From positions 2,730,001-2,762,000 of the forward strand of contig NZ_CP066019.1 of assembly GCF_016127575.1 (NCBI RefSeq): DNA of 32,000 nucleotides, written 5' to 3'. Made by a program: the position numbers and the translations under genes. Below, piece by piece: positions 17,304-24,899 of the stretch. The stretch's first letter is position 1, and every line of letters begins with the position of its first letter. A model generated the notes under the pieces. The model was not told where the DNA came from. It made no database searches and saw nothing but the letters and a program-made list of their open reading frames with translations. Source of the DNA: Cupriavidus necator. GTDB taxonomy: Bacteria > Pseudomonadota > Gammaproteobacteria > Burkholderiales > Burkholderiaceae.

Positions 17304-19736
17304 TTACTGCGGCACCAACTCCAACCGCTCCCGGCTGGCCTTCTCCACCGCCTTGCGCGTATACACCAGCGGGAAATACTCCCCCTTGGCCCACAACGGC
17401 GCCAGGTCGCGGTAATGCGGGCTGGCGGGATTGCCCGATTGCCCCGGCGTGTTGATCACGCGCGAGGCATCCCAGTTGCCCACATCCAGCACCATGCGGA
17501 ACGACGCGCCCGCGGTCAGCCGGAAGTCGGTATTGCGGTAGCTGGTGTTCATCGGCGTGAAGGCCGAGCCGCCGATCGGACCGGCGTTGACATTGAACTG
17601 CTGGCGTTCCGCGTCGCTCAGGATCGGGTCCATCGGATGCGTGAACACGGCAGTGTGAAGCTTGCCCCATTGCCATGCGCGCGGGTCGGGGCCGAGCTTG
17701 CCTTCCGCTTCCGCCATGGCGGCCTTCAGCGATTCGAGCATCACCGCATTGCGGCGCTCCACCGGCATCCACGGACCGGGCTGCTCCAGCACCGCCACCA
17801 CGCGCGCGGCATCGCCGGCACCGACCAGGCGTGCGGCTTCGGGCGTCAGCGCGGCGCGCACCACGGCCTGGCGCAGGTGTTTGCTGAACCAGACTTCGAA
17901 CAATGCCGCTGCGGCGCTGTCGGCACGCTCGTTGCCGTCCCAGCCGCGCAGCAGGTCCAGGCCGCGGGCCAGTTGCGGGTCGTCGCTGCGCACGTCCCTC
18001 AGCAGCGCCACCACGCGCTGGGCCGGCAGCGAAACGGTGTCGTTCTGCCACGCCATCGAGTCCTGCGCCGAGCTGCGCGCATTGGCGCCCACCACGGCCT
18101 TGAGCCGGCGCGCGCGCGAGCTGTCGCTCCATTCATAGCCCACGCCAAGTTTCGCGGCCGGGTGCTCGGGCGGGATGTTGTTCTCGTTGGCGGTGACGAT
18201 GTAGCCTGGCGCGGGGTTGTAGGCCCACGGCAGCTCGTCCATGTTGCGGTAGCCGGCCCACTCGTAGCGGCCATCGCCCGCCACCGGCGTGAGGCCGTCC
18301 CAGTTGGGCCGCTTGACGGTCAGCCCGCCCGGGATCCAGCCGATATTGCCGCTGGTATCGGCATAGACCTGGTTCTCGCCGGGCGCGCCCCAGCGGTTCA
18401 TGGCGGCGCGGAACTGGTCCCAGTTGCGCGCGCGCATATAGTCCATCGAACCGAAGTACGGCGCCATGCCGTAGTCGAGCCACGCGGCGCGCAGCGCCCA
18501 CGCCTGCGCGCGGCCGGCATCGGCAACCAGCACCGGGCCGTGGCGCGTGAAGTCGATGGTGACCTTGCGCGGCGCGGACTCGCCCTTGACCACGATCTCT
18601 TCGGTGATGCTCTCCATCGGTTCCCAGCGGCCCTTGTACTTGTACTCATGCGGGTTGGCCGGATTGAGCTCGTAGCCGTACAGGTCTTCCTGGTCCATGT
18701 AGAAGCGCGTCAGGCCAAAGGCAATGGTGCCGTTGTGCCCGATCGAGATGCCGGGCAGGAACGGCTCGCCCGCGCCGATCACCGACATCCCCGGCGCGTT
18801 CAGGTGGCTGATATAGCGCAGGCTGGGCGCGCCGTGCGAGCGGTGCGGGTCGTTGGCCAGGATCGGGCGGCCGGTGGTGGTGCGCTTGCCGCCGATGACC
18901 CAGTTGTTCGATCCGAGGCTGCGGCCGGCGTCGCTGTTGGGGTCCACCAGTGCGTAGAGCTGGTCGAGCGGGATGCTGGCGGCCTGCGCATTGCCCCACG
19001 CCTCTTTCGGGAAGCGCGCTGCGGCGGTGGCCAGTTCGTAGGCGCGGCGCAGTTCGGCGGCGGGAACCGTGCAGGGGTCGATGCCGGGGCTGAGCCTGGG
19101 CTCGATCTGCGGGTCGAGTTCGCGGCGCAGCCAGTCGGCACGCGGGGCGTCCTGTTTGGCCTGGCAATAGAGCTGGGCGCGTTCGACTTCGCCGGTGAAG
19201 TTGAGCGTCAGGCCGTGGTGGCGGATGCGCACGATATCGTCGGCACGCCAGCGCGCAGGCTTGTAGTTGAGCTTGCGGAATTCCGGCGGCAGCAGCTCGG
19301 GCTTCTGCTCGGTCAGCGCCACATAGGCGTTCACCCCGGCCACGAAGGCCTCGGCCACGCGCTTGGCGTCGGAGCCATAGGCCAGCCATTCGCGGTACAT
19401 GTCGCCGCGGAACAGCACCGCGCGCGCCATGCGGTCGCCATCGGCATAGGCCGGGCCGAAGTCCCTGGCCATTTCGCCGAGTCCGCGCTTGCGCCACAGG
19501 TCGATCTGCCACAGGCGGTCGCGCGCGGCCATGAAGCCCTGCACGAAAAAGGCGTCGTAGAGCGTGCCGGCATAGATATGCGGCACGCCCCAGCGGTCGA
19601 CCAGCACGCTGGCGGGCTTTTCCAGGCCGGGCACGGCCAGCACGTTGTTGCGGACGGGGGCTTCGGCCATGGCGGCCGGGATGGTGGTGGCGAGCAGGGC
19701 CAGCGCAGCGGCCAGGCGGCGGGGGGTGCGTAACAT
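17304..19736 (-). CDS. Secreted Ntn-hydrolase of the penicillin acylase / acyl-homoserine-lactone acylase family (peptidase S45)
   Basis: Track ORF 17304-19838; start moved to ATG 19736 (GGAGA at 19741-19745 rc). Signal peptide MLRTPRRLAAALALLATTIPAAMA/EAP. Alpha-subunit strings VDRWGVPHIYA, FFVQGFMAARDRLWQIDLWRK. The predicted autoproteolytic site is G-SNNW (Ser codon 18911-18909), followed by TTGRPILANDPH. Confidence 0.9.
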   Translation of the reverse strand: MLRTPRRLAAALALLATTIPAAMAEAPVRNNVLAVPGLEKPASVLVDRWGVPHIYAGTLYDAFFVQGFMAARDRLWQIDLWRKRGLGEMARDFGPAYADGDRMARAVLFRGDMYREWLAYGSDAKRVAEAFVAGVNAYVALTEQKPELLPPEFRKLNYKPARWRADDIVRIRHHGLTLNFTGEVERAQLYCQAKQDAPRADWLRRELDPQIEPRLSPGIDPCTVPAAELRRAYELATAAARFPKEAWGNAQAASIPLDQLYALVDPNSDAGRSLGSNNWVIGGKRTTTGRPILANDPHRSHGAPSLRYISHLNAPGMSVIGAGEPFLPGISIGHNGTIAFGLTRFYMDQEDLYGYELNPANPHEYKYKGRWEPMESITEEIVVKGESAPRKVTIDFTRHGPVLVADAGRAQAWALRAAWLDYGMAPYFGSMDYMRARNWDQFRAAMNRWGAPGENQVYADTSGNIGWIPGGLTVKRPNWDGLTPVAGDGRYEWAGYRNMDELPWAYNPAPGYIVTANENNIPPEHPAAKLGVGYEWSDSSRARRLKAVVGANARSSAQDSMAWQNDTVSLPAQRVVALLRDVRSDDPQLARGLDLLRGWDGNERADSAAAALFEVWFSKHLRQAVVRAALTPEAARLVGAGDAARVVAVLEQPGPWMPVERRNAVMLESLKAAMAEAEGKLGPDPRAWQWGKLHTAVFTHPMDPILSDAERQQFNVNAGPIGGSAFTPMNTSYRNTDFRLTAGASFRMVLDVGNWDASRVINTPGQSGNPASPHYRDLAPLWAKGEYFPLVYTRKAVEKASRERLELVPQ

Positions 19737-19803
19737 CAGGTCTCCTCGGTGTTGTGATTGGCTGCAGATGTCTTGCAGTTCACACCGAAGATAGTGCATC
19801 GCC

Positions 19804-19827
19804 GGCCAGCGCGCGAGCCGCGCGGCC
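19804..19827 (-). terminator. GC hairpin between the reductase and acylase genes (possible partial terminator)
   Basis: GGCC(A)GCGCG-CGAGC-CGCGCGGCC lies 35 nt past the reductase stop. No U-tract is present. Confidence 0.3.
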
Positions 19828-19861
19828 GATCTCCGCACGGCGTGTGCCGCTGCGGGTTCGC

Positions 19862-21460
19862 TCAGTAGACGTCGCGCCGGTAGCGGCCGTCGTCGGCAAG
19901 CCGGCGCAGCGCGTCTGCGCCGAGGATCCCGGCCAGTGCGTCATGGACGCCGCCGGCCATGCCCTGCAGGCTGCCGCAGACATAGATGGCGGCGCCGTCC
20001 GCCACCCATTGGCGCACCGTATCGCCCTGCGCGCGCAAGGCGTCCTGCACGTAGCGCGGCGCGCCGCCGTCACGCGACCAGGCATGGTCCACGCGCTGCA
20101 GCGTGCCGTCGGCCTGCCATGCGGCCAGGTCCCCGGCAAAGAACGCATCATGCTGCGCCGAGCGCTCGCCGAACAGCAGCCAGTTGCGGCGCCGCCCGGC
20201 CGCGGCGCGGGCCTTGAGCTGGGCGCGCAGCCCGGCCAGCCCGGTGCCGTTGCCGACCAGGATCAGGGGCCGGTCATCGGCCGGCGGGTGGAAGCTGCGG
20301 TTGGTGCGGATGCGCAGCGCGATGCGGGTGCCCACGGCCGCGTGTTCGGTCAGCCAGCCGGAGGCCAGGCCCAGGCGGCCGTCGTCGTAGCGGGTCTGCC
20401 GCACCAGCAGTTCGAGTTGCCCGTCCCGCGGCAGCGAGGCGATCGAATATTCGCGGTGCGGCAGCGGCGGCAGCGTGTCCACCAGTTGCTGCGGCGGCAG
20501 GCCCTGCATCGCCGCGAAGTGCGCCTCAGGCAGCGGCATGCGTGTGCCCAGCGCCTCGGCGAGCGTGGCGTCGCGGCCGTCGCAGCGCACCGGTGTGGCG
20601 CCGTCGAGGCCAAGCCGCGCCAGCAGCCGTTCAACCTCGGCCGGCGCGTGGCACGGGCCGATCTCGGCGATGTCGCCGGCTTGCCAGTCCATTGCCGCAT
20701 CGTCCTGCGGCGCCAGCGACAGGTGGAATGCCGGCGCGCCCTGGCTGCCGGGGTTCAGATGACGGCGTTGCGCGAGCCGCCAGCTGTCATAGCGCGGGCG
20801 TTCCCAGTCGGCAATCTCCGCGCCGCCGCTCAGGGCCGACAGGTGGTTCTGCCAGTGGCGCAGTGCGCCGGCGTCGCCGTTGTCGACTTCGACCAGGTCA
20901 AAGAGCGGCTGCGCGCGGTGACGCTGCAGCCAGCCGTCGAGCGCGTGGCCGAAGGCGCAGAAGCGCGCGTAGCTGCTGTCGCCGAGCGCGAGGATGCCGT
21001 AGCGCAAGGACTGCAGGCCATCCGCGCCGGCCAGCAAGCGGCGCGCAAAACCGGACGCGCTGTCGGGGGCGTCGCCCTCGCCGGTGGTGCTGACCAGAAA
21101 CAGCGCCTGGCGGCATGCCTGCAGGCGCCGCGCATCGACATCGGCCAGCGACAGCAGTTGCACCGGCACCCCCGCGCCGTGCAGCGCGTTGGCGGTCTGC
21201 AACGCCAGTTGTTCGGCAAACCCGGTCTGCGAGGCGTAGGCAACCAGCGTCGCGCCCTCTTCCGTGCCAGCCAGTGCCACCACGCGCACGCGCCGCTGGC
21301 GATGGTGGGCAAGCACCGCGCTGCAGAAGCCCGCATAGGCGGCCACCACGCCGGCCGCCATAGCCATGCGCGACGGCCCCAGCACGGACAGCGCGACGCC
21401 GCCGGCAACGGCAAGCCAGCTTGCGCCGGCGATGGCGGACGGCATGGCCTTCGCGCTCAT
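19862..21460 (-). CDS. Membrane-tethered CysJ-like diflavin reductase (flavodoxin + FAD/NAD(P)H ferredoxin-reductase domains)
   Basis: Track ORF 19862-21619; start moved to ATG 21460, which overlaps the ApbE stop (ATGA, 21457-21460). Two N-terminal hydrophobic helices (AIAGASWLAVAGGVALSVL, AMAAGVVAAYAGFCSAVLA). Flavodoxin-like strings TLVAYASQTGFAEQLA, LFLVSTTGEGDAPD, YGILALGDSSY. FAD motif REYSIAS. NAD(P)H motif LILVGNGTGLAGLRA. C-terminal YRRDVY. Confidence 0.85.
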   Translation of the reverse strand: MSAKAMPSAIAGASWLAVAGGVALSVLGPSRMAMAAGVVAAYAGFCSAVLAHHRQRRVRVVALAGTEEGATLVAYASQTGFAEQLALQTANALHGAGVPVQLLSLADVDARRLQACRQALFLVSTTGEGDAPDSASGFARRLLAGADGLQSLRYGILALGDSSYARFCAFGHALDGWLQRHRAQPLFDLVEVDNGDAGALRHWQNHLSALSGGAEIADWERPRYDSWRLAQRRHLNPGSQGAPAFHLSLAPQDDAAMDWQAGDIAEIGPCHAPAEVERLLARLGLDGATPVRCDGRDATLAEALGTRMPLPEAHFAAMQGLPPQQLVDTLPPLPHREYSIASLPRDGQLELLVRQTRYDDGRLGLASGWLTEHAAVGTRIALRIRTNRSFHPPADDRPLILVGNGTGLAGLRAQLKARAAAGRRRNWLLFGERSAQHDAFFAGDLAAWQADGTLQRVDHAWSRDGGAPRYVQDALRAQGDTVRQWVADGAAIYVCGSLQGMAGGVHDALAGILGADALRRLADDGRYRRDVY

Positions 21461-22473
21461 GCCAGCATCGCGGCAAAGGCCGGGGACAGCTGTTCGTCGA
21501 AGCCGCCCGGCGTGCGCACCAGGAAGCGCGCGGCAATGCCGTGGCGGCGCGCGTGCGCCATGCCTGCCTGCGGGCCCAGCACGGTCAGCGCGGTGGACAG
21601 CGCATCGGCCAGCATGCACTGCGCGTGGATGACCGTGACCGAGGCCAGCGCGTGGCTGGCCGGATAGCCGGTGCGCGGATCGATGGTATGGGCGTAGCGG
21701 CGACCGTCACTGTCGAAATAGCGGCGATAGTCGCCGGAAGTGGCGACGGACAGGCCGTGCAGTGCCACCAGCGTCTGCCCCGCGGCATCGCTGCCCAGCC
21801 CCGGCGGGGCCTCCAGCGCGACCCACCACGGCATGCCGTCGGGCTTGACGCCATGGCCGCGCAGTTCGCCGCCGATCTCCGTCAAGTGGTGGTCAAGGCC
21901 CTGCTCACACAGGTAGCCTGCCACCGCGTCGACGGCAAAGCCCTTGGCGATGGCGCAGAAGTCCAGCGACACGCCGCCCGGCTGCCAGGCGCGCCGGCCC
22001 GTGGCATCGACTTCGATGCGGGCCCAGCCGCAGCGGCCGCGCGTGGCCTGCACCGCGTCTGGCGACGGCGGCGCGGTGCGCGCCGGTGCTGGGCCGAAGC
22101 CCCACAGGTCGACCAGCGGACCGGCGCTCGGGTCATAGGCGCCACCGCTGTCGCGCGCCACCAGCAGCGCGCATTGCAGCACCATGAAGCAGTCTTCAGG
22201 CAGCGCGTGCCAGCTGCCGGGTGCCGCGCCGTTGAAACGGCTCAGATCGGAATCCGCTTCCCAGTTGCTCATCTGCGCGATCACGCCATCTAGAACGGCC
22301 TGGATGCCGGCGGCGATGGCGTCCGCATCCGTGGCCGGCGGCAGCAGTGCCGCCACCGACCAGGTCGTGCCCATGGTCGCGCCGCCCCAGCGCTGCAGCC
22401 GCATATCGGCTGCGGGCGGCTGTGGGGGCGCGGTCAGCGCAACAGGTACCAGGACGCGGTTCAAACCCGGCAA
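21457..22473 (-). CDS. apbE: ApbE-family FAD:protein FMN transferase (flavinyl transferase)
   Basis: The longest ORF starts at TTG 22473, 5 nt after the DUF4198 stop; ATG 22404 is an alternative. Family motifs: TMGTTWSV, GAYDPSAGPLVDLWGFGP, DFCAIAKGFAVDAV, VATSGDYRRYF, YAHTIDPRTGYP, ADALSTAL. No obvious signal peptide is present. Confidence 0.85.
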   Translation of the reverse strand: MPGLNRVLVPVALTAPPQPPAADMRLQRWGGATMGTTWSVAALLPPATDADAIAAGIQAVLDGVIAQMSNWEADSDLSRFNGAAPGSWHALPEDCFMVLQCALLVARDSGGAYDPSAGPLVDLWGFGPAPARTAPPSPDAVQATRGRCGWARIEVDATGRRAWQPGGVSLDFCAIAKGFAVDAVAGYLCEQGLDHHLTEIGGELRGHGVKPDGMPWWVALEAPPGLGSDAAGQTLVALHGLSVATSGDYRRYFDSDGRRYAHTIDPRTGYPASHALASVTVIHAQCMLADALSTALTVLGPQAGMAHARRHGIAARFLVRTPGGFDEQLSPAFAAMLA

Positions 22474-22478
22474 CCGGC

Positions 22479-23318
22479 TTATTGCGGCAGCACCTCGACC
22501 GTCACCGCATAGACGGCACGGCGCGATTTGGCCTGCTTGAAGGTGGTCTTGTCATCCTTCACCTCGGCTTCCATCCAGTACATGCCTGGGGCCGGCCACT
22601 TGACGCTGAACTTGCCGTCGGCGTCGGTGGTGGCGCTGAACTCCTGCAGCTGGTCGCGGTAGCGGATGCCGCCCGGCACCACCGAGACCTTCAGGTTGCT
22701 GGCGGGCTTGCCGTCGAGCAGCATGCGGAAGCTGGCGGTGTCGCCCGCGACCAGGTCGTTCGGGTGCGTGATCGGGGCCAGTTCCAGGCCGCGGCCGGCG
22801 GTGCGCAGGCCCTTGTCGCTGGGCTTGCCGGCGGTGATGAAGGATTCGATGCGGCCTTCGGCCTGGGTGGCCTGCAGGTCCTGCGCATTGGCCGGGACTT
22901 CCTTGGCGAAGTTCTCGGCCGAACCCCGCCAGCGCTTGGCCTGGCCGTCGACCTTGTAGCTGGCGAACAGGCCGTTGTTGACCACCGCCACGCGGTACGT
23001 GCCGGGCTGGGTCAGGTGCAGGTCGAAGGTGCTGCGGTACTTGCCGGTGGCAGCGTTCTCGGCCTTGACGGCGCTGCCATCGGGCGCGGTCACCTGCAGG
23101 TTGTCGAGCCGCATCGGCACGTGCTCGAAATAGAACAGGTCGTTGGAGACAGCGGCGTCCACGGTCACCCACGGATCGCTGCCTGACAGCACGGTAGCCG
23201 ACGGCAGCAGCCACTGGCGGTGCGCGTGCGCGGCCAGCGGCGCCAGGGCGGCCAGGGCGAGCACGGCCACGCGGGTGGCGATGCGGGTAGATGCGGCGGA
23301 CATAAGGGAAGGTTTCAT
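22479..23318 (-). CDS. Periplasmic DUF4198 domain protein (family related to Ni/Co-uptake periplasmic components)
   Basis: ATG 23318 with GGAG upstream. Signal peptide ...LALAALAPLAAHA/HRQWLLPS. Beta-rich with DUF4198-like strings: DAAVSNDLFYFEH, TFDLHLTQPGTYRVAVVNNG, GLELAPITHPNDLVAGDTASFRMLLDGKP, DADGKFSVKWPAPGMYWMEA. Confidence 0.8.
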   Translation of the reverse strand: MKPSLMSAASTRIATRVAVLALAALAPLAAHAHRQWLLPSATVLSGSDPWVTVDAAVSNDLFYFEHVPMRLDNLQVTAPDGSAVKAENAATGKYRSTFDLHLTQPGTYRVAVVNNGLFASYKVDGQAKRWRGSAENFAKEVPANAQDLQATQAEGRIESFITAGKPSDKGLRTAGRGLELAPITHPNDLVAGDTASFRMLLDGKPASNLKVSVVPGGIRYRDQLQEFSATTDADGKFSVKWPAPGMYWMEAEVKDDKTTFKQAKSRRAVYAVTVEVLPQ

Positions 23319-23336: not shown

Positions 23337-23861
23337 TTACGGCTTCAGTTCGACGGTCACGCCGCCGAGTTCGTGTTCGCCCTTGGCGCGGGCGGTCTGT
23401 GCGGCTTGCGGCGGCCACGTGAACGGCACGCGCAGCAGCTCGCGCCCGCCCACTTCACGCGCGGCTTCCACCACCAGCTGGTAGTTGCCGGCGGGCAGCT
23501 TGCCCAGCGGCGCCTTGTCGTCGCTGAAGCTCACGCCGTGCTCGCCCGGCGCGCGCGTGGCGCCGGAGATGCCGTCGGCCGGCATGTGCAGGTCGCGGCC
23601 GGCCTTGCGCCACCACTGGCGCATGTCCTTGAGCCACTTGGTGCCTTCGCCGTCCCTGAGCTTGCCGTCGTACCAGACCGCCAGGGTCTGCACCGGGCTC
23701 TGGTCGGCGCGCTCGACCCACATCGCCACATAGGGGCGGTGGTACTCGGCCACGGTCAGGCGCGGGATTTCGACCTTGACGTTCAGGTCCGCGGCCAGCG
23801 CGGGGCCGGCCAGGGGAACCGCGGCCATGCCGGTCAGGGTGACGGTGAGCAGTCGGCGCAT
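23337..23861 (-). CDS. Periplasmic DUF2271 domain protein with a predicted ApbE flavinylation site
   Basis: ATG 23861. Signal peptide MRRLLTVTLTGMAAVPLAGPALA/ADL with a twin-Arg at positions 2-3. DUF2271-like strings: EYHRPYVAMWVE, TLAVWYDGK, WLKDMRQWWRK, LPAGNYQLVVEAAREVGGRELL. Motif DGISGAT at residues 96-102 (nt 23576-23556). Confidence 0.85.
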   Translation of the reverse strand: MRRLLTVTLTGMAAVPLAGPALAADLNVKVEIPRLTVAEYHRPYVAMWVERADQSPVQTLAVWYDGKLRDGEGTKWLKDMRQWWRKAGRDLHMPADGISGATRAPGEHGVSFSDDKAPLGKLPAGNYQLVVEAAREVGGRELLRVPFTWPPQAAQTARAKGEHELGGVTVELKP

Positions 23862-23916: not shown

Positions 23917-24573
23917 TCAATGGATAAACAGGAGCGCCAGCAGCACCGGGACCACCAGCCCCAGCCCCACCAGCGGCCAGGTCCCCACGCGCCCGGCCGC
24001 ATGCAGCTTGAGCAGGAACAGGCCGGTCACGCTGAAGACCAGGCATGCCAGCGCGAACACATCCAGGAACAGGCTCCACGCGGCGCCGGTGTTGCGGCCC
24101 TTGTGCAGGTCGTTCAGGTAGGAGATGGCGCCGCGCGTGGTTTTCTCGTACTGGGCTTCGCCGCTGTCGAGTTCCAGGCTGACCCAGGCGTCGCCGCCCG
24201 GACGCGGCAGCGCCACGTAGATCTCGTCGGCGGACCATTCGGCCTCGCGCCCGCTGGCGTCGATGTCCAGCGCCTGCGCCAGCCAGTCGGCCAGCACCGG
24301 CGGCACCGGCGCCTTCTTTTCACGCCCCTGGGCATCGCCCGCCGGCGCTTCGGCCCGCACCTTGTCGAGCACGCGCGTGGGCATGGTGGCGTGGCGCGTC
24401 TCGACCGCGGGCCTGGCCTCGATCTGTGCGGCGTGGTTGAGCGTGAAGCCGGTAACGGCAAACATCAGCATCCCGATCAGGCAGATCGCGGAACTGATCC
24501 AGTGCCACTGGTGGAGATGCTTGAGCCAGAAGGCACGCCGCTGTTGGCCGGAGGCCGGCTGGGTTTCGGTCAT
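23917..24573 (-). CDS. PepSY-associated TM helix (PepSY_TM / PiuB/FoxB-like) inner-membrane protein, short 3-TM form
   Basis: Track ORF 23917-24600 starts at a TTG; I prefer ATG 24573 (MTETQPASGQQRRAFWLKHLHQWHWISSAICLIGMLMFAVTGFTLNH). Second family motif ISYLNDLHKGRNTGAAWSLFLDVFALACLVFSVTGLFLL, plus a C-terminal TM. Confidence 0.8.
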   Translation of the reverse strand: MTETQPASGQQRRAFWLKHLHQWHWISSAICLIGMLMFAVTGFTLNHAAQIEARPAVETRHATMPTRVLDKVRAEAPAGDAQGREKKAPVPPVLADWLAQALDIDASGREAEWSADEIYVALPRPGGDAWVSLELDSGEAQYEKTTRGAISYLNDLHKGRNTGAAWSLFLDVFALACLVFSVTGLFLLKLHAAGRVGTWPLVGLGLVVPVLLALLFIH

Positions 24574-24673
24574 TGCGGTTGGTCGGCGGGCGCGGCCCAA
24601 GTGGCGGCCCGGTCTTGCCTTGTGTACGGATAGCTGGAGCGTCCCTTGCGCGCATCACACGGGCTCAGGCGTG

Positions 24674-24691: not shown

Positions 24692-24708
24692 TTGGCGGAA
24701 GAGAGAAG

Positions 24709-24727
24709 GATAATCGTTCGCATTTGA
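24709..24727 (-). promoter_or_regulatory. Fur-box-like AT-rich site
   Basis: GATAATCGTTCGCATTTGA matches the 19-bp Fur consensus GATAATGATAATCATTATC at 11 of 19 positions, with the first 6 perfect. It sits in the only AT-rich patch upstream of the operon, about 136 nt from ATG 24573. It overlaps an ATTTGAAAT near-palindrome flanked by TCGCA direct repeats. Confidence 0.4.
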
Positions 24728-24899
24728 AATCGCAAACGGTCCGGGACGGCGCTGGATTACAGCGCATTACAACGTGAAGCAGCGGGACGGATCACTTGTC
24801 CGCGGCGCTCTGGTTCGCTGGAAGAGATGTGCAACGCACAAGCAAGACGGCACATGTAAGCCAATCAACCATATCACCCGAAGGGGTGAAATTACCCAG

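Follow-up and report, generated by a model that had tools for sequence, protein, structure and literature searches.

In the window, that is, the whole 32,000-nucleotide stretch of Cupriavidus necator DNA analyzed here, the ApbE of a five-gene operon very probably attaches FMN to Thr102 of the exported DUF2271 protein encoded by the same operon, and the flavinylated protein would serve as the periplasmic redox carrier in extracytosolic electron transfer by a PepSY-like system that is induced by iron starvation. That DUF2271 is flavinylated by ApbE on the Thr residue of its motif, and within PepSY-like clusters, is already known (PMC8238504). Since this flavinylation was shown experimentally in 2021, the operon is regarded as an ordinary member of a known iron-starvation electron-transfer type, and the description of DUF2271 in the original prediction as a domain of unknown function had been overtaken by that publication (PMC8238504). 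In annotation, the five genes may confidently be labeled an extracytosolic electron-transfer system, flavin-based and of the Fur-type iron-starvation class, whose predicted FMN site is Thr102. The sole part of the operon that could add knowledge is the N-terminus of ApbE, as described in detail below.

The five genes follow one another in the same orientation, on the minus strand, and encode, in gene order, a PepSY_TM-like membrane protein, the DUF2271 protein, a DUF4198 protein, ApbE, and a flavodoxin/FAD/NAD(P)H reductase, all assigned with Pfam. The intergenic gaps, in the same order, are 55, 18, 5, and −4 nt, which fits a single operon. PepSY-like clusters have been defined by a membrane protein of the PF03929 or PF16357 family together with ApbE, DUF2271, and usually DUF4198; 3220 such clusters were reported, 2833 of them with DUF2271 and 1500 with DUF4198, and the systems were proposed to carry out transmembrane electron transfer for iron reduction and assimilation (PMC8238504). 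The operon of the window falls under this definition, with all four genes adjacent and on one strand. In a subset of PepSY-like systems, an NAD-binding domain is fused to the PepSY-like protein (PMC8238504), whereas in the window this function is assigned to a separate gene. Upstream of the operon, a methyl-accepting chemotaxis gene is transcribed divergently, and the remaining genes of the window (G+C = 68%) are concerned with unrelated transport and metabolism. Neither a ferrous-iron transporter nor a TonB-dependent receptor is encoded adjacent to the operon in the window.

The DUF2271 protein, a putative ApbE substrate of 174 aa (23337..23861, minus strand), matches Pfam PF10029 with an E-value of 1.5e-54, at 183.8 bits versus a cut-off of 27.3 and with profile positions 2–135 of 136 covered. 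Its translation contains the flavinylation motif D96-G-I-S-G-A-T102 (DGISGAT; 23556..23576, minus strand; GACGGCATCTCCGGCGCCACG), in which Thr102 is encoded by the codon ACG at 23556–23558 within the surrounding sequence HMPADGISGATRAPGEH; translation of the minus strand thus reproduces the residue numbers and coordinates of the original prediction in every case. ApbE recognizes the motif D-x-x-[S/T]-G-A-[S/T] and attaches FMN to its last residue, and the 7-residue motif alone suffices as a tag (PMC12052999). DGISGAT fits this sequence at all defined positions, so that the proposed reading of the motif as an ApbE recognition context holds. By its place in the motif and by analogy with a characterized homologue, Thr102 is almost certainly the predicted site of the FMN phosphoester.

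A match to D..[ST]GA[ST] is expected by chance 0.0012 times per 174-aa protein and approximately 0.06 times over all proteins of the window, as calculated from their amino-acid composition. When all 32 kb were translated in six frames, two matches were obtained, and the second of these (21054–21074, plus strand) lies antisense to a real gene. The latter match, in a non-coding frame, is what can be said for reading DGISGAT as a chance occurrence with no function; against this stand the low expectation per protein and the retention of the Thr residue in 80 of 80 loci, with conservation down to ~35% identity. Chance is therefore an exceedingly improbable explanation, effectively refuted by conservation. 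The [ST]GA[ST] core was absent from the other operon proteins, all of which were scanned, and a second flavinylation target with a motif of the DGISGAT type in the operon was accordingly rejected.

Direct biochemical evidence comes from a homologue. A conserved [S/T]GA[S/T] motif was described in 282 DUF2271 proteins encoded next to orphan apbE genes (Méheust et al. 2021, eLife, PMC8238504). In the same study, the Amantichitinum ursilacus DUF2271 protein (WP_053936890.1), when produced in E. coli with its cognate ApbE, was UV-fluorescent and flavinylated, and exchange of Thr for Ala at the predicted site abolished flavinylation (PMC8238504). Hence, the experiment put forward in the original prediction—co-expression, UV inspection of SDS-PAGE gels, and a Thr-to-Ala variant—has already been published for a homologue, with a positive outcome (PMC8238504). 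DUF2271 has since been listed among the confirmed flavinylated domains, as one with its own fold (PMC11334425). Both the A. ursilacus protein and that of the window belong to this Pfam family and carry a signal peptide; each has one [S/T]GA[S/T] motif with Thr as its last residue, and each is encoded in a cluster that contains apbE. The equivalence of the two Thr residues would follow from the single conserved motif column in the family. In Andreprevotia (L039), a sister genus of Amantichitinum, the five-gene order is identical and the DUF2271 protein is 65% identical to that of the window.

Conservation was assessed in the best 80 of 590 confirmed matches, with one genome per species. These 80 loci span Beta-, Alpha-, and Gammaproteobacteria, and the order PepSY, DUF2271, DUF4198 is identical in all of them. 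The closest DUF2271 protein, at 95% identity, is encoded on chromosome 2 of Cupriavidus sp. TMH.W2. Across the best 80 of 590 loci, the motif column reads D-G-[VIL]-[ST]-[GSA]-[AP]-T-[RK], and the motif Thr is kept in 80/80, including the 17 loci without an apbE match. The conservation check suggested in the original prediction, with and without apbE nearby, thus gave the result expected of a flavinylation site. Furthermore, among the 150 best 50%-identity cluster representatives (35–60% identity), the motif is found in most full-length sequences, down to ~35–40% identity, and the representatives lacking it are mostly fragments or frameshifted predictions. The motif is the most conserved loop in the DUF2271 family.

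The apbE gene comes next after DUF4198 in 63 of these best 80 of 590 loci. Of the 17 loci with no apbE match, four end too early to judge, and the other 13 were judged from flanking DNA, so that at least 13, mainly from Pseudomonas and Stutzerimonas, truly lack the gene in the cluster. PepSY, DUF2271, DUF4198, and the reductase, but no apbE, were observed in L052, L053, L055, L056, L058, L065, L067, L070–L072, L079, and L080. In the Pseudomonas, Stutzerimonas, and related clusters without apbE, the intact motif (DGVSGAT) implies that the product of an apbE gene outside the cluster carries out flavinylation. The CysJ-like reductase gene was detected downstream in 52 of the best 80 of 590 loci and adjoins apbE in 42; another 12 loci have the CysJ-like gene and no apbE match, with the gene directly following DUF4198 in 10 of these, and in the remaining loci the gene is mostly absent although the flanking DNA was covered.

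The loci lacking apbE also bear on another reading, in which the motif is kept for a structural or ligand-related reason, ApbE either serves some other target or traffics flavin or hydrolyzes FAD for the CysJ-like reductase, and DUF2271 is not flavinylated in vivo. Besides the 17 of 80 loci without an apbE match, at least 13 of them true absences from the cluster, this reading could draw on the apparent lack of an export signal on ApbE when DUF2271 is exported, and on members of the ApbE/Ftp family that are FAD pyrophosphatases (PMC4767422). Nevertheless, Thr-dependent flavinylation of DUF2271 by the cluster ApbE has been demonstrated directly (PMC8238504), no other operon protein offers the [ST]GA[ST] core, and the most conserved loop of the family is the very one that fits the ApbE recognition sequence at all defined positions. 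The probability that DUF2271 escapes flavinylation in this manner is very small, and flavinylation of Thr102 by ApbE is retained as the preferred reading.

The DUF2271 protein is clearly predicted to be extracytoplasmic. Residues 1–23 (MRRLLTVTLTGMAAVPLAGPALA; 23793..23861, minus strand) have the n/h/c layout and A-x-A site of a Sec-type signal peptide, with cleavage predicted before ADL, as judged by eye and from hydropathy; a cleavable signal peptide had been proposed originally, and this assignment is supported. The layout and the A-x-A site are kept in 81 homologues. Export via the Tat pathway was considered and rejected, as a twin arginine occurs in only 18 of the 81 N-termini. Two natural fusions were also observed. 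In the first (P0145; 363 aa), a PepSY_TM-like protein is fused to DUF2271, and its third membrane helix stands in for the signal peptide; the DUF2271 domain would be located outside the cytoplasm because it comes after this helix. The second (P0259; 470 aa) consists of a signal peptide, a divergent ApbE-like domain, and DUF2271, and its N-terminal signal peptide would place both domains outside the cytoplasm.

With respect to structure, AlphaFold2 (AF2) models DUF2271 as a β-sandwich plus a single helix at a moderate pLDDT of 70.6, and confidence falls below 50 in the loop that carries the motif (residues 91–102). No significant match to a solved structure in the PDB was obtained either with a sequence profile or by a fold search with the AF2 model; the structure searches gave only insignificant matches to C2-like or β-sandwich proteins, the best with an E-value of 0.016. 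NqrC and RnfG, which contain the FMN_bind domain, share with DUF2271 the recognition motif, the FMN phosphoester on the last Thr, the extracytoplasmic face, and the role of a one-flavin relay. Their fold is, however, unrelated, and DUF2271 is a soluble secreted protein rather than a subunit of an ion-pumping complex.

The flavin transferase itself, FAD:protein FMN transferase ApbE, is encoded at 21457..22473 on the minus strand (Pfam PF02424, E = 7e-84). It aligns over its full length with ApbE structures from P. stutzeri (5mgy, E = 9.5e-70) and V. cholerae (6nxi, 1e-61), with 45–50% similarity to the solved FMN transferases. S246, H262, and D290 align with Ser241, His257, and Asp285 of V. cholerae ApbE, the residues named in the ApbE review, and the enzyme is, as judged from this alignment, catalytically intact. 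The placement of apbE two genes downstream of DUF2271 in the same operon, as originally described, is confirmed by the Pfam assignment, the intact catalytic residues, and the tight gaps.

ApbE enzymes of the canonical type are lipoproteins and have a signal at the N-terminus; in V. cholerae, Cys17 is the lipidated residue (ApbE review). In the present operon type, residues 1–33 of ApbE (22375–22473, minus strand) consist of a conserved M-x-R-V-L-[VI]-P stretch followed by a Pro-rich linker, as seen in the N-termini of L001–L078. The spacing between the Arg residue and the core MGT motif is fixed at 25–30 residues among the homologues, and 37 of 62 of these have D, E, H, R, or K within 8 residues after the conserved Arg, as in MPERRVLIPHDLDDTPPP, and so have no hydrophobic core. 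No lipobox, A-x-A site, or recognizable Sec, lipoprotein, or Tat signal was found in the ApbE N-termini. Homologues annotated by NCBI start three codons later, at M-N-R-V-L-V-P, and in-frame stops upstream rule out longer N-termini in many loci. In the AF2 model (pLDDT 91.9), residues 6–8 form a strand (pLDDT 73–77). The median best 9-residue hydropathy in the same loci was 1.49 for ApbE, compared with 1.98 for the DUF2271 signal and 2.52 for the DUF4198 signal. From these sequence features, the M-x-R-V-L-V-P stretch and Pro-rich linker appear not to be a signal peptide in most relatives. In Cupriavidus, the corresponding ApbE segment (VLVPVALTAPPQPPAA) is uncharged and moderately hydrophobic (2.39), and it could conceivably act as a weak export signal. 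Two other routes for ApbE were considered and rejected: a Tat signal, because a twin arginine is not conserved (NR, QR, HR, or TR is found at this place) and the stretch that follows lacks a hydrophobic core, and a DUF4198–ApbE fusion arising by frameshift or readthrough, which would lend ApbE the DUF4198 signal peptide, because the frames differ here. The distance between DUF4198 and apbE also speaks against such a fusion, since it varies among relatives between a few nt and over 180 nt.

Since ApbE has no recognizable signal, a periplasmic ApbE acting on an exported substrate is unsupported for this operon type, and the compartment in which ApbE meets DUF2271 is less obvious than the original prediction had assumed: of the two export signals that a shared compartment outside the cytoplasm would call for, the one on DUF2271 was found, but a recognizable one on ApbE was not. 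The chemistry and the site could thus be the same, but with a cytoplasmic ApbE modifying the unfolded precursor and the flavinylated chain then being exported via Sec. This order of events would remove the need for a supply of FAD to the periplasm, and the features of the ApbE N-terminus speak for it, namely a conserved motif of fixed length, with charged or His residues early in 37 of 62 homologues and without a lipobox or A-x-A site; longer N-termini excluded in many loci by in-frame stops, with which the NCBI starts agree; and, at residues 6–8 in the AF2 model, a strand rather than a free tail. Cytosolic ApbEs do exist (ApbE review), and ApbE modifies a bare 7-residue tag (PMC12052999), so that a folded substrate is not required. 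Within the same loci, hydrophobicity is also lower for the DUF2271 signals than for the DUF4198 signals (medians 1.98 vs 2.52), which would be weakly suggestive of post-translational export.

Several observations nonetheless weigh against flavinylation in the cytoplasm. ApbE kept in the cytoplasm failed to complement an apbE mutant of Salmonella (ApbE review), and no case is known in which SecYEG exported a flavinylated chain. In the natural fusion P0259, the ApbE-like and DUF2271 domains would both lie outside the cytoplasm, following the N-terminal signal peptide. The Pseudomonas and Stutzerimonas clusters without their own apbE presumably use a periplasmic lipoprotein ApbE encoded elsewhere. 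In addition, the uncharged Cupriavidus segment VLVPVALTAPPQPPAA, at 2.39, may be a weak signal, and the cognate ApbE used with the A. ursilacus DUF2271 protein was described as "signal peptide-truncated" (Méheust et al., PMC8238504). Modification of the precursor before export is therefore considered unlikely. Similarly, it is judged improbable that the dedicated ApbE of this operon type as a whole stays unexported, with M-x-R-V-L-V-P as a structural or docking element and the linear motif of DUF2271 receiving its flavin in the cytoplasm, ahead of Sec export, or that this ApbE reaches the periplasm by an unrecognized route. If true, a non-exported ApbE or an unrecognized route would constitute a new way to make extracytoplasmic covalent flavoproteins, and cytoplasmic flavinylation would sidestep the unsolved supply of FAD to the periplasm. 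Should ApbE truly be devoid of an export signal, the operon would lend itself well to asking at which place and time ApbE substrates are modified.

The membrane component, a PepSY_TM-like protein (23917..24600, minus strand; Pfam PF16357 PepSY_TM_like_2, E = 4e-84), is a proposed transmembrane electron carrier. These coordinates are those of the longest open reading frame, and an alternative ATG start is present at 24573. Three membrane helices are predicted, with conserved His residues at their ends: His33, His56, His166, and His227 are kept in 79–80 of 80 homologues, and His200 in 71 of 80. This pattern fits bis-His heme sites. The nearly invariant His227 (79/80) is also the C-terminal residue of the protein, in addition to the four helix-flanking His residues. 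FoxB, a PepSY-like protein that binds two hemes via conserved His pairs, provides a structural model for the membrane component (PMC11334425); it was not matched by the window protein in a sequence search against the PDB. FoxB and VciB, which are PepSY-type ferric or ferric-siderophore reductases, have in common with the PepSY protein of the window the conserved His residues at helix ends and a link to periplasmic iron reduction. However, FoxB and VciB lack associated flavinylation components (PMC8238504), whereas the window protein belongs to PepSY_TM_like_2 and has three helices.

DUF4198, a periplasmic, predicted metal-binding protein, is encoded at 22479..23318 on the minus strand (Pfam PF10670, E = 1.3e-62). 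Its signal peptide is strong and ends in ...AHA, so that the predicted mature N-terminus is His33 (codon 23220–23222; AHA|HRQWLLPS). The junction A-[HQ]-A|H-[RK]-x-W-[LM]-L-P-S was recognized by eye in most of the 81 DUF4198 homologues listed. DUF4198 proteins are periplasmic Zn or Ni binders (PMC12663993, PMC12537917), with the N-terminal His serving as a metal ligand in one structure (PMC12537917); a weak sequence match of the window protein to PDB entries 9mhk/9mhi was also obtained. The predicted N-terminal His33 matches this metal site, and DUF4198 may accordingly be a partner of the flavoprotein that binds metal.

The proposed cytoplasmic electron donor is a CysJ-like, membrane-tethered flavodoxin/FAD/NAD(P)H reductase (19862..21460, minus strand); the gene begins with an ATG at 21460, in a 4-nt overlap with the stop codon of apbE. 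In Pfam, Flavodoxin_1 (3e-24) and NAD_binding_1 (2e-6) both exceed their curated cut-offs, and FAD_binding_1 (8e-6), at 26.0 bits, is below its cut-off of 32.3 bits. Two moderately hydrophobic segments precede the flavodoxin domain at the N-terminus.

A Fur-box-like operator with an overlapping dyad is located at 24703..24738 (minus strand), ~100–130 nt ahead of the gene that opens the operon. The match to the 19-bp Fur consensus is 14/19 at 24703–24721, the best in the whole window, and 12/19 at 24709–24727; an inverted repeat with an 8-bp stem spans 24715–24738. Many related loci have a Fur-consensus match at the equivalent place, reaching 17/19 (GCAAATGATAATCATTATC) in L068 and L077. A scan for promoters and terminators gave nothing above chance. 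The 14/19 match suggests that the operon of the window may be regulated by iron through Fur.

Iron regulation of this gene set has been established in Caulobacter crescentus, in which CC_3059–CC_3063 (CCNA_03155–03159) is a direct Fur target with a validated Fur site and 12–51-fold induction on iron limitation (PMC3751524). Furthermore, transposon insertions in CC_3059–3063 lower fitness in EDTA (bioRxiv 10.1101/2024.10.16.618771). The five genes and their order are the same as in the window, namely a PepSY-type "transporter," DUF2271, DUF4198, ApbE, and a sulfite-reductase-like flavoprotein, and the genus is represented among the loci by that of C. segnis (L046). The Fur site is experimentally validated in Caulobacter, whereas the window has only the 14/19 consensus match, and the regulation and the phenotype were measured in Caulobacter only.

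Taken together, the components suggest the following mechanism. [quoted passage not shown] Electrons would then pass from NAD(P)H to the FAD and FMN of the membrane-tethered CysJ-like reductase, from these flavins to the hemes that the PepSY_TM-like protein would bind through its conserved His pairs, and from the hemes to FMN-Thr102 of the periplasmic DUF2271 protein. Electrons would finally reach a metal in the periplasm, most likely Fe(III) or a ferric chelate, and DUF4198, with its N-terminal His and predicted metal binding, may hold the substrate or the product. In this scheme, we infer that the DUF2271 protein of the window is flavinylated, that the PepSY protein binds heme, that the carriers act in the order given, that iron is the acceptor, and in which compartment ApbE acts.

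A gene for a secreted product of the penicillin-amidase family (Ntn-hydrolase), conceivably a PvdQ-like siderophore or AHL acylase of the iron operon, was observed directly downstream of the CysJ-like gene, at 17304–19838 on the minus strand. A gene of this family occupies the equivalent place in 5 of 12 Cupriavidus loci (L002, L007, L008, L010, and L074) and in none of the loci of other genera.
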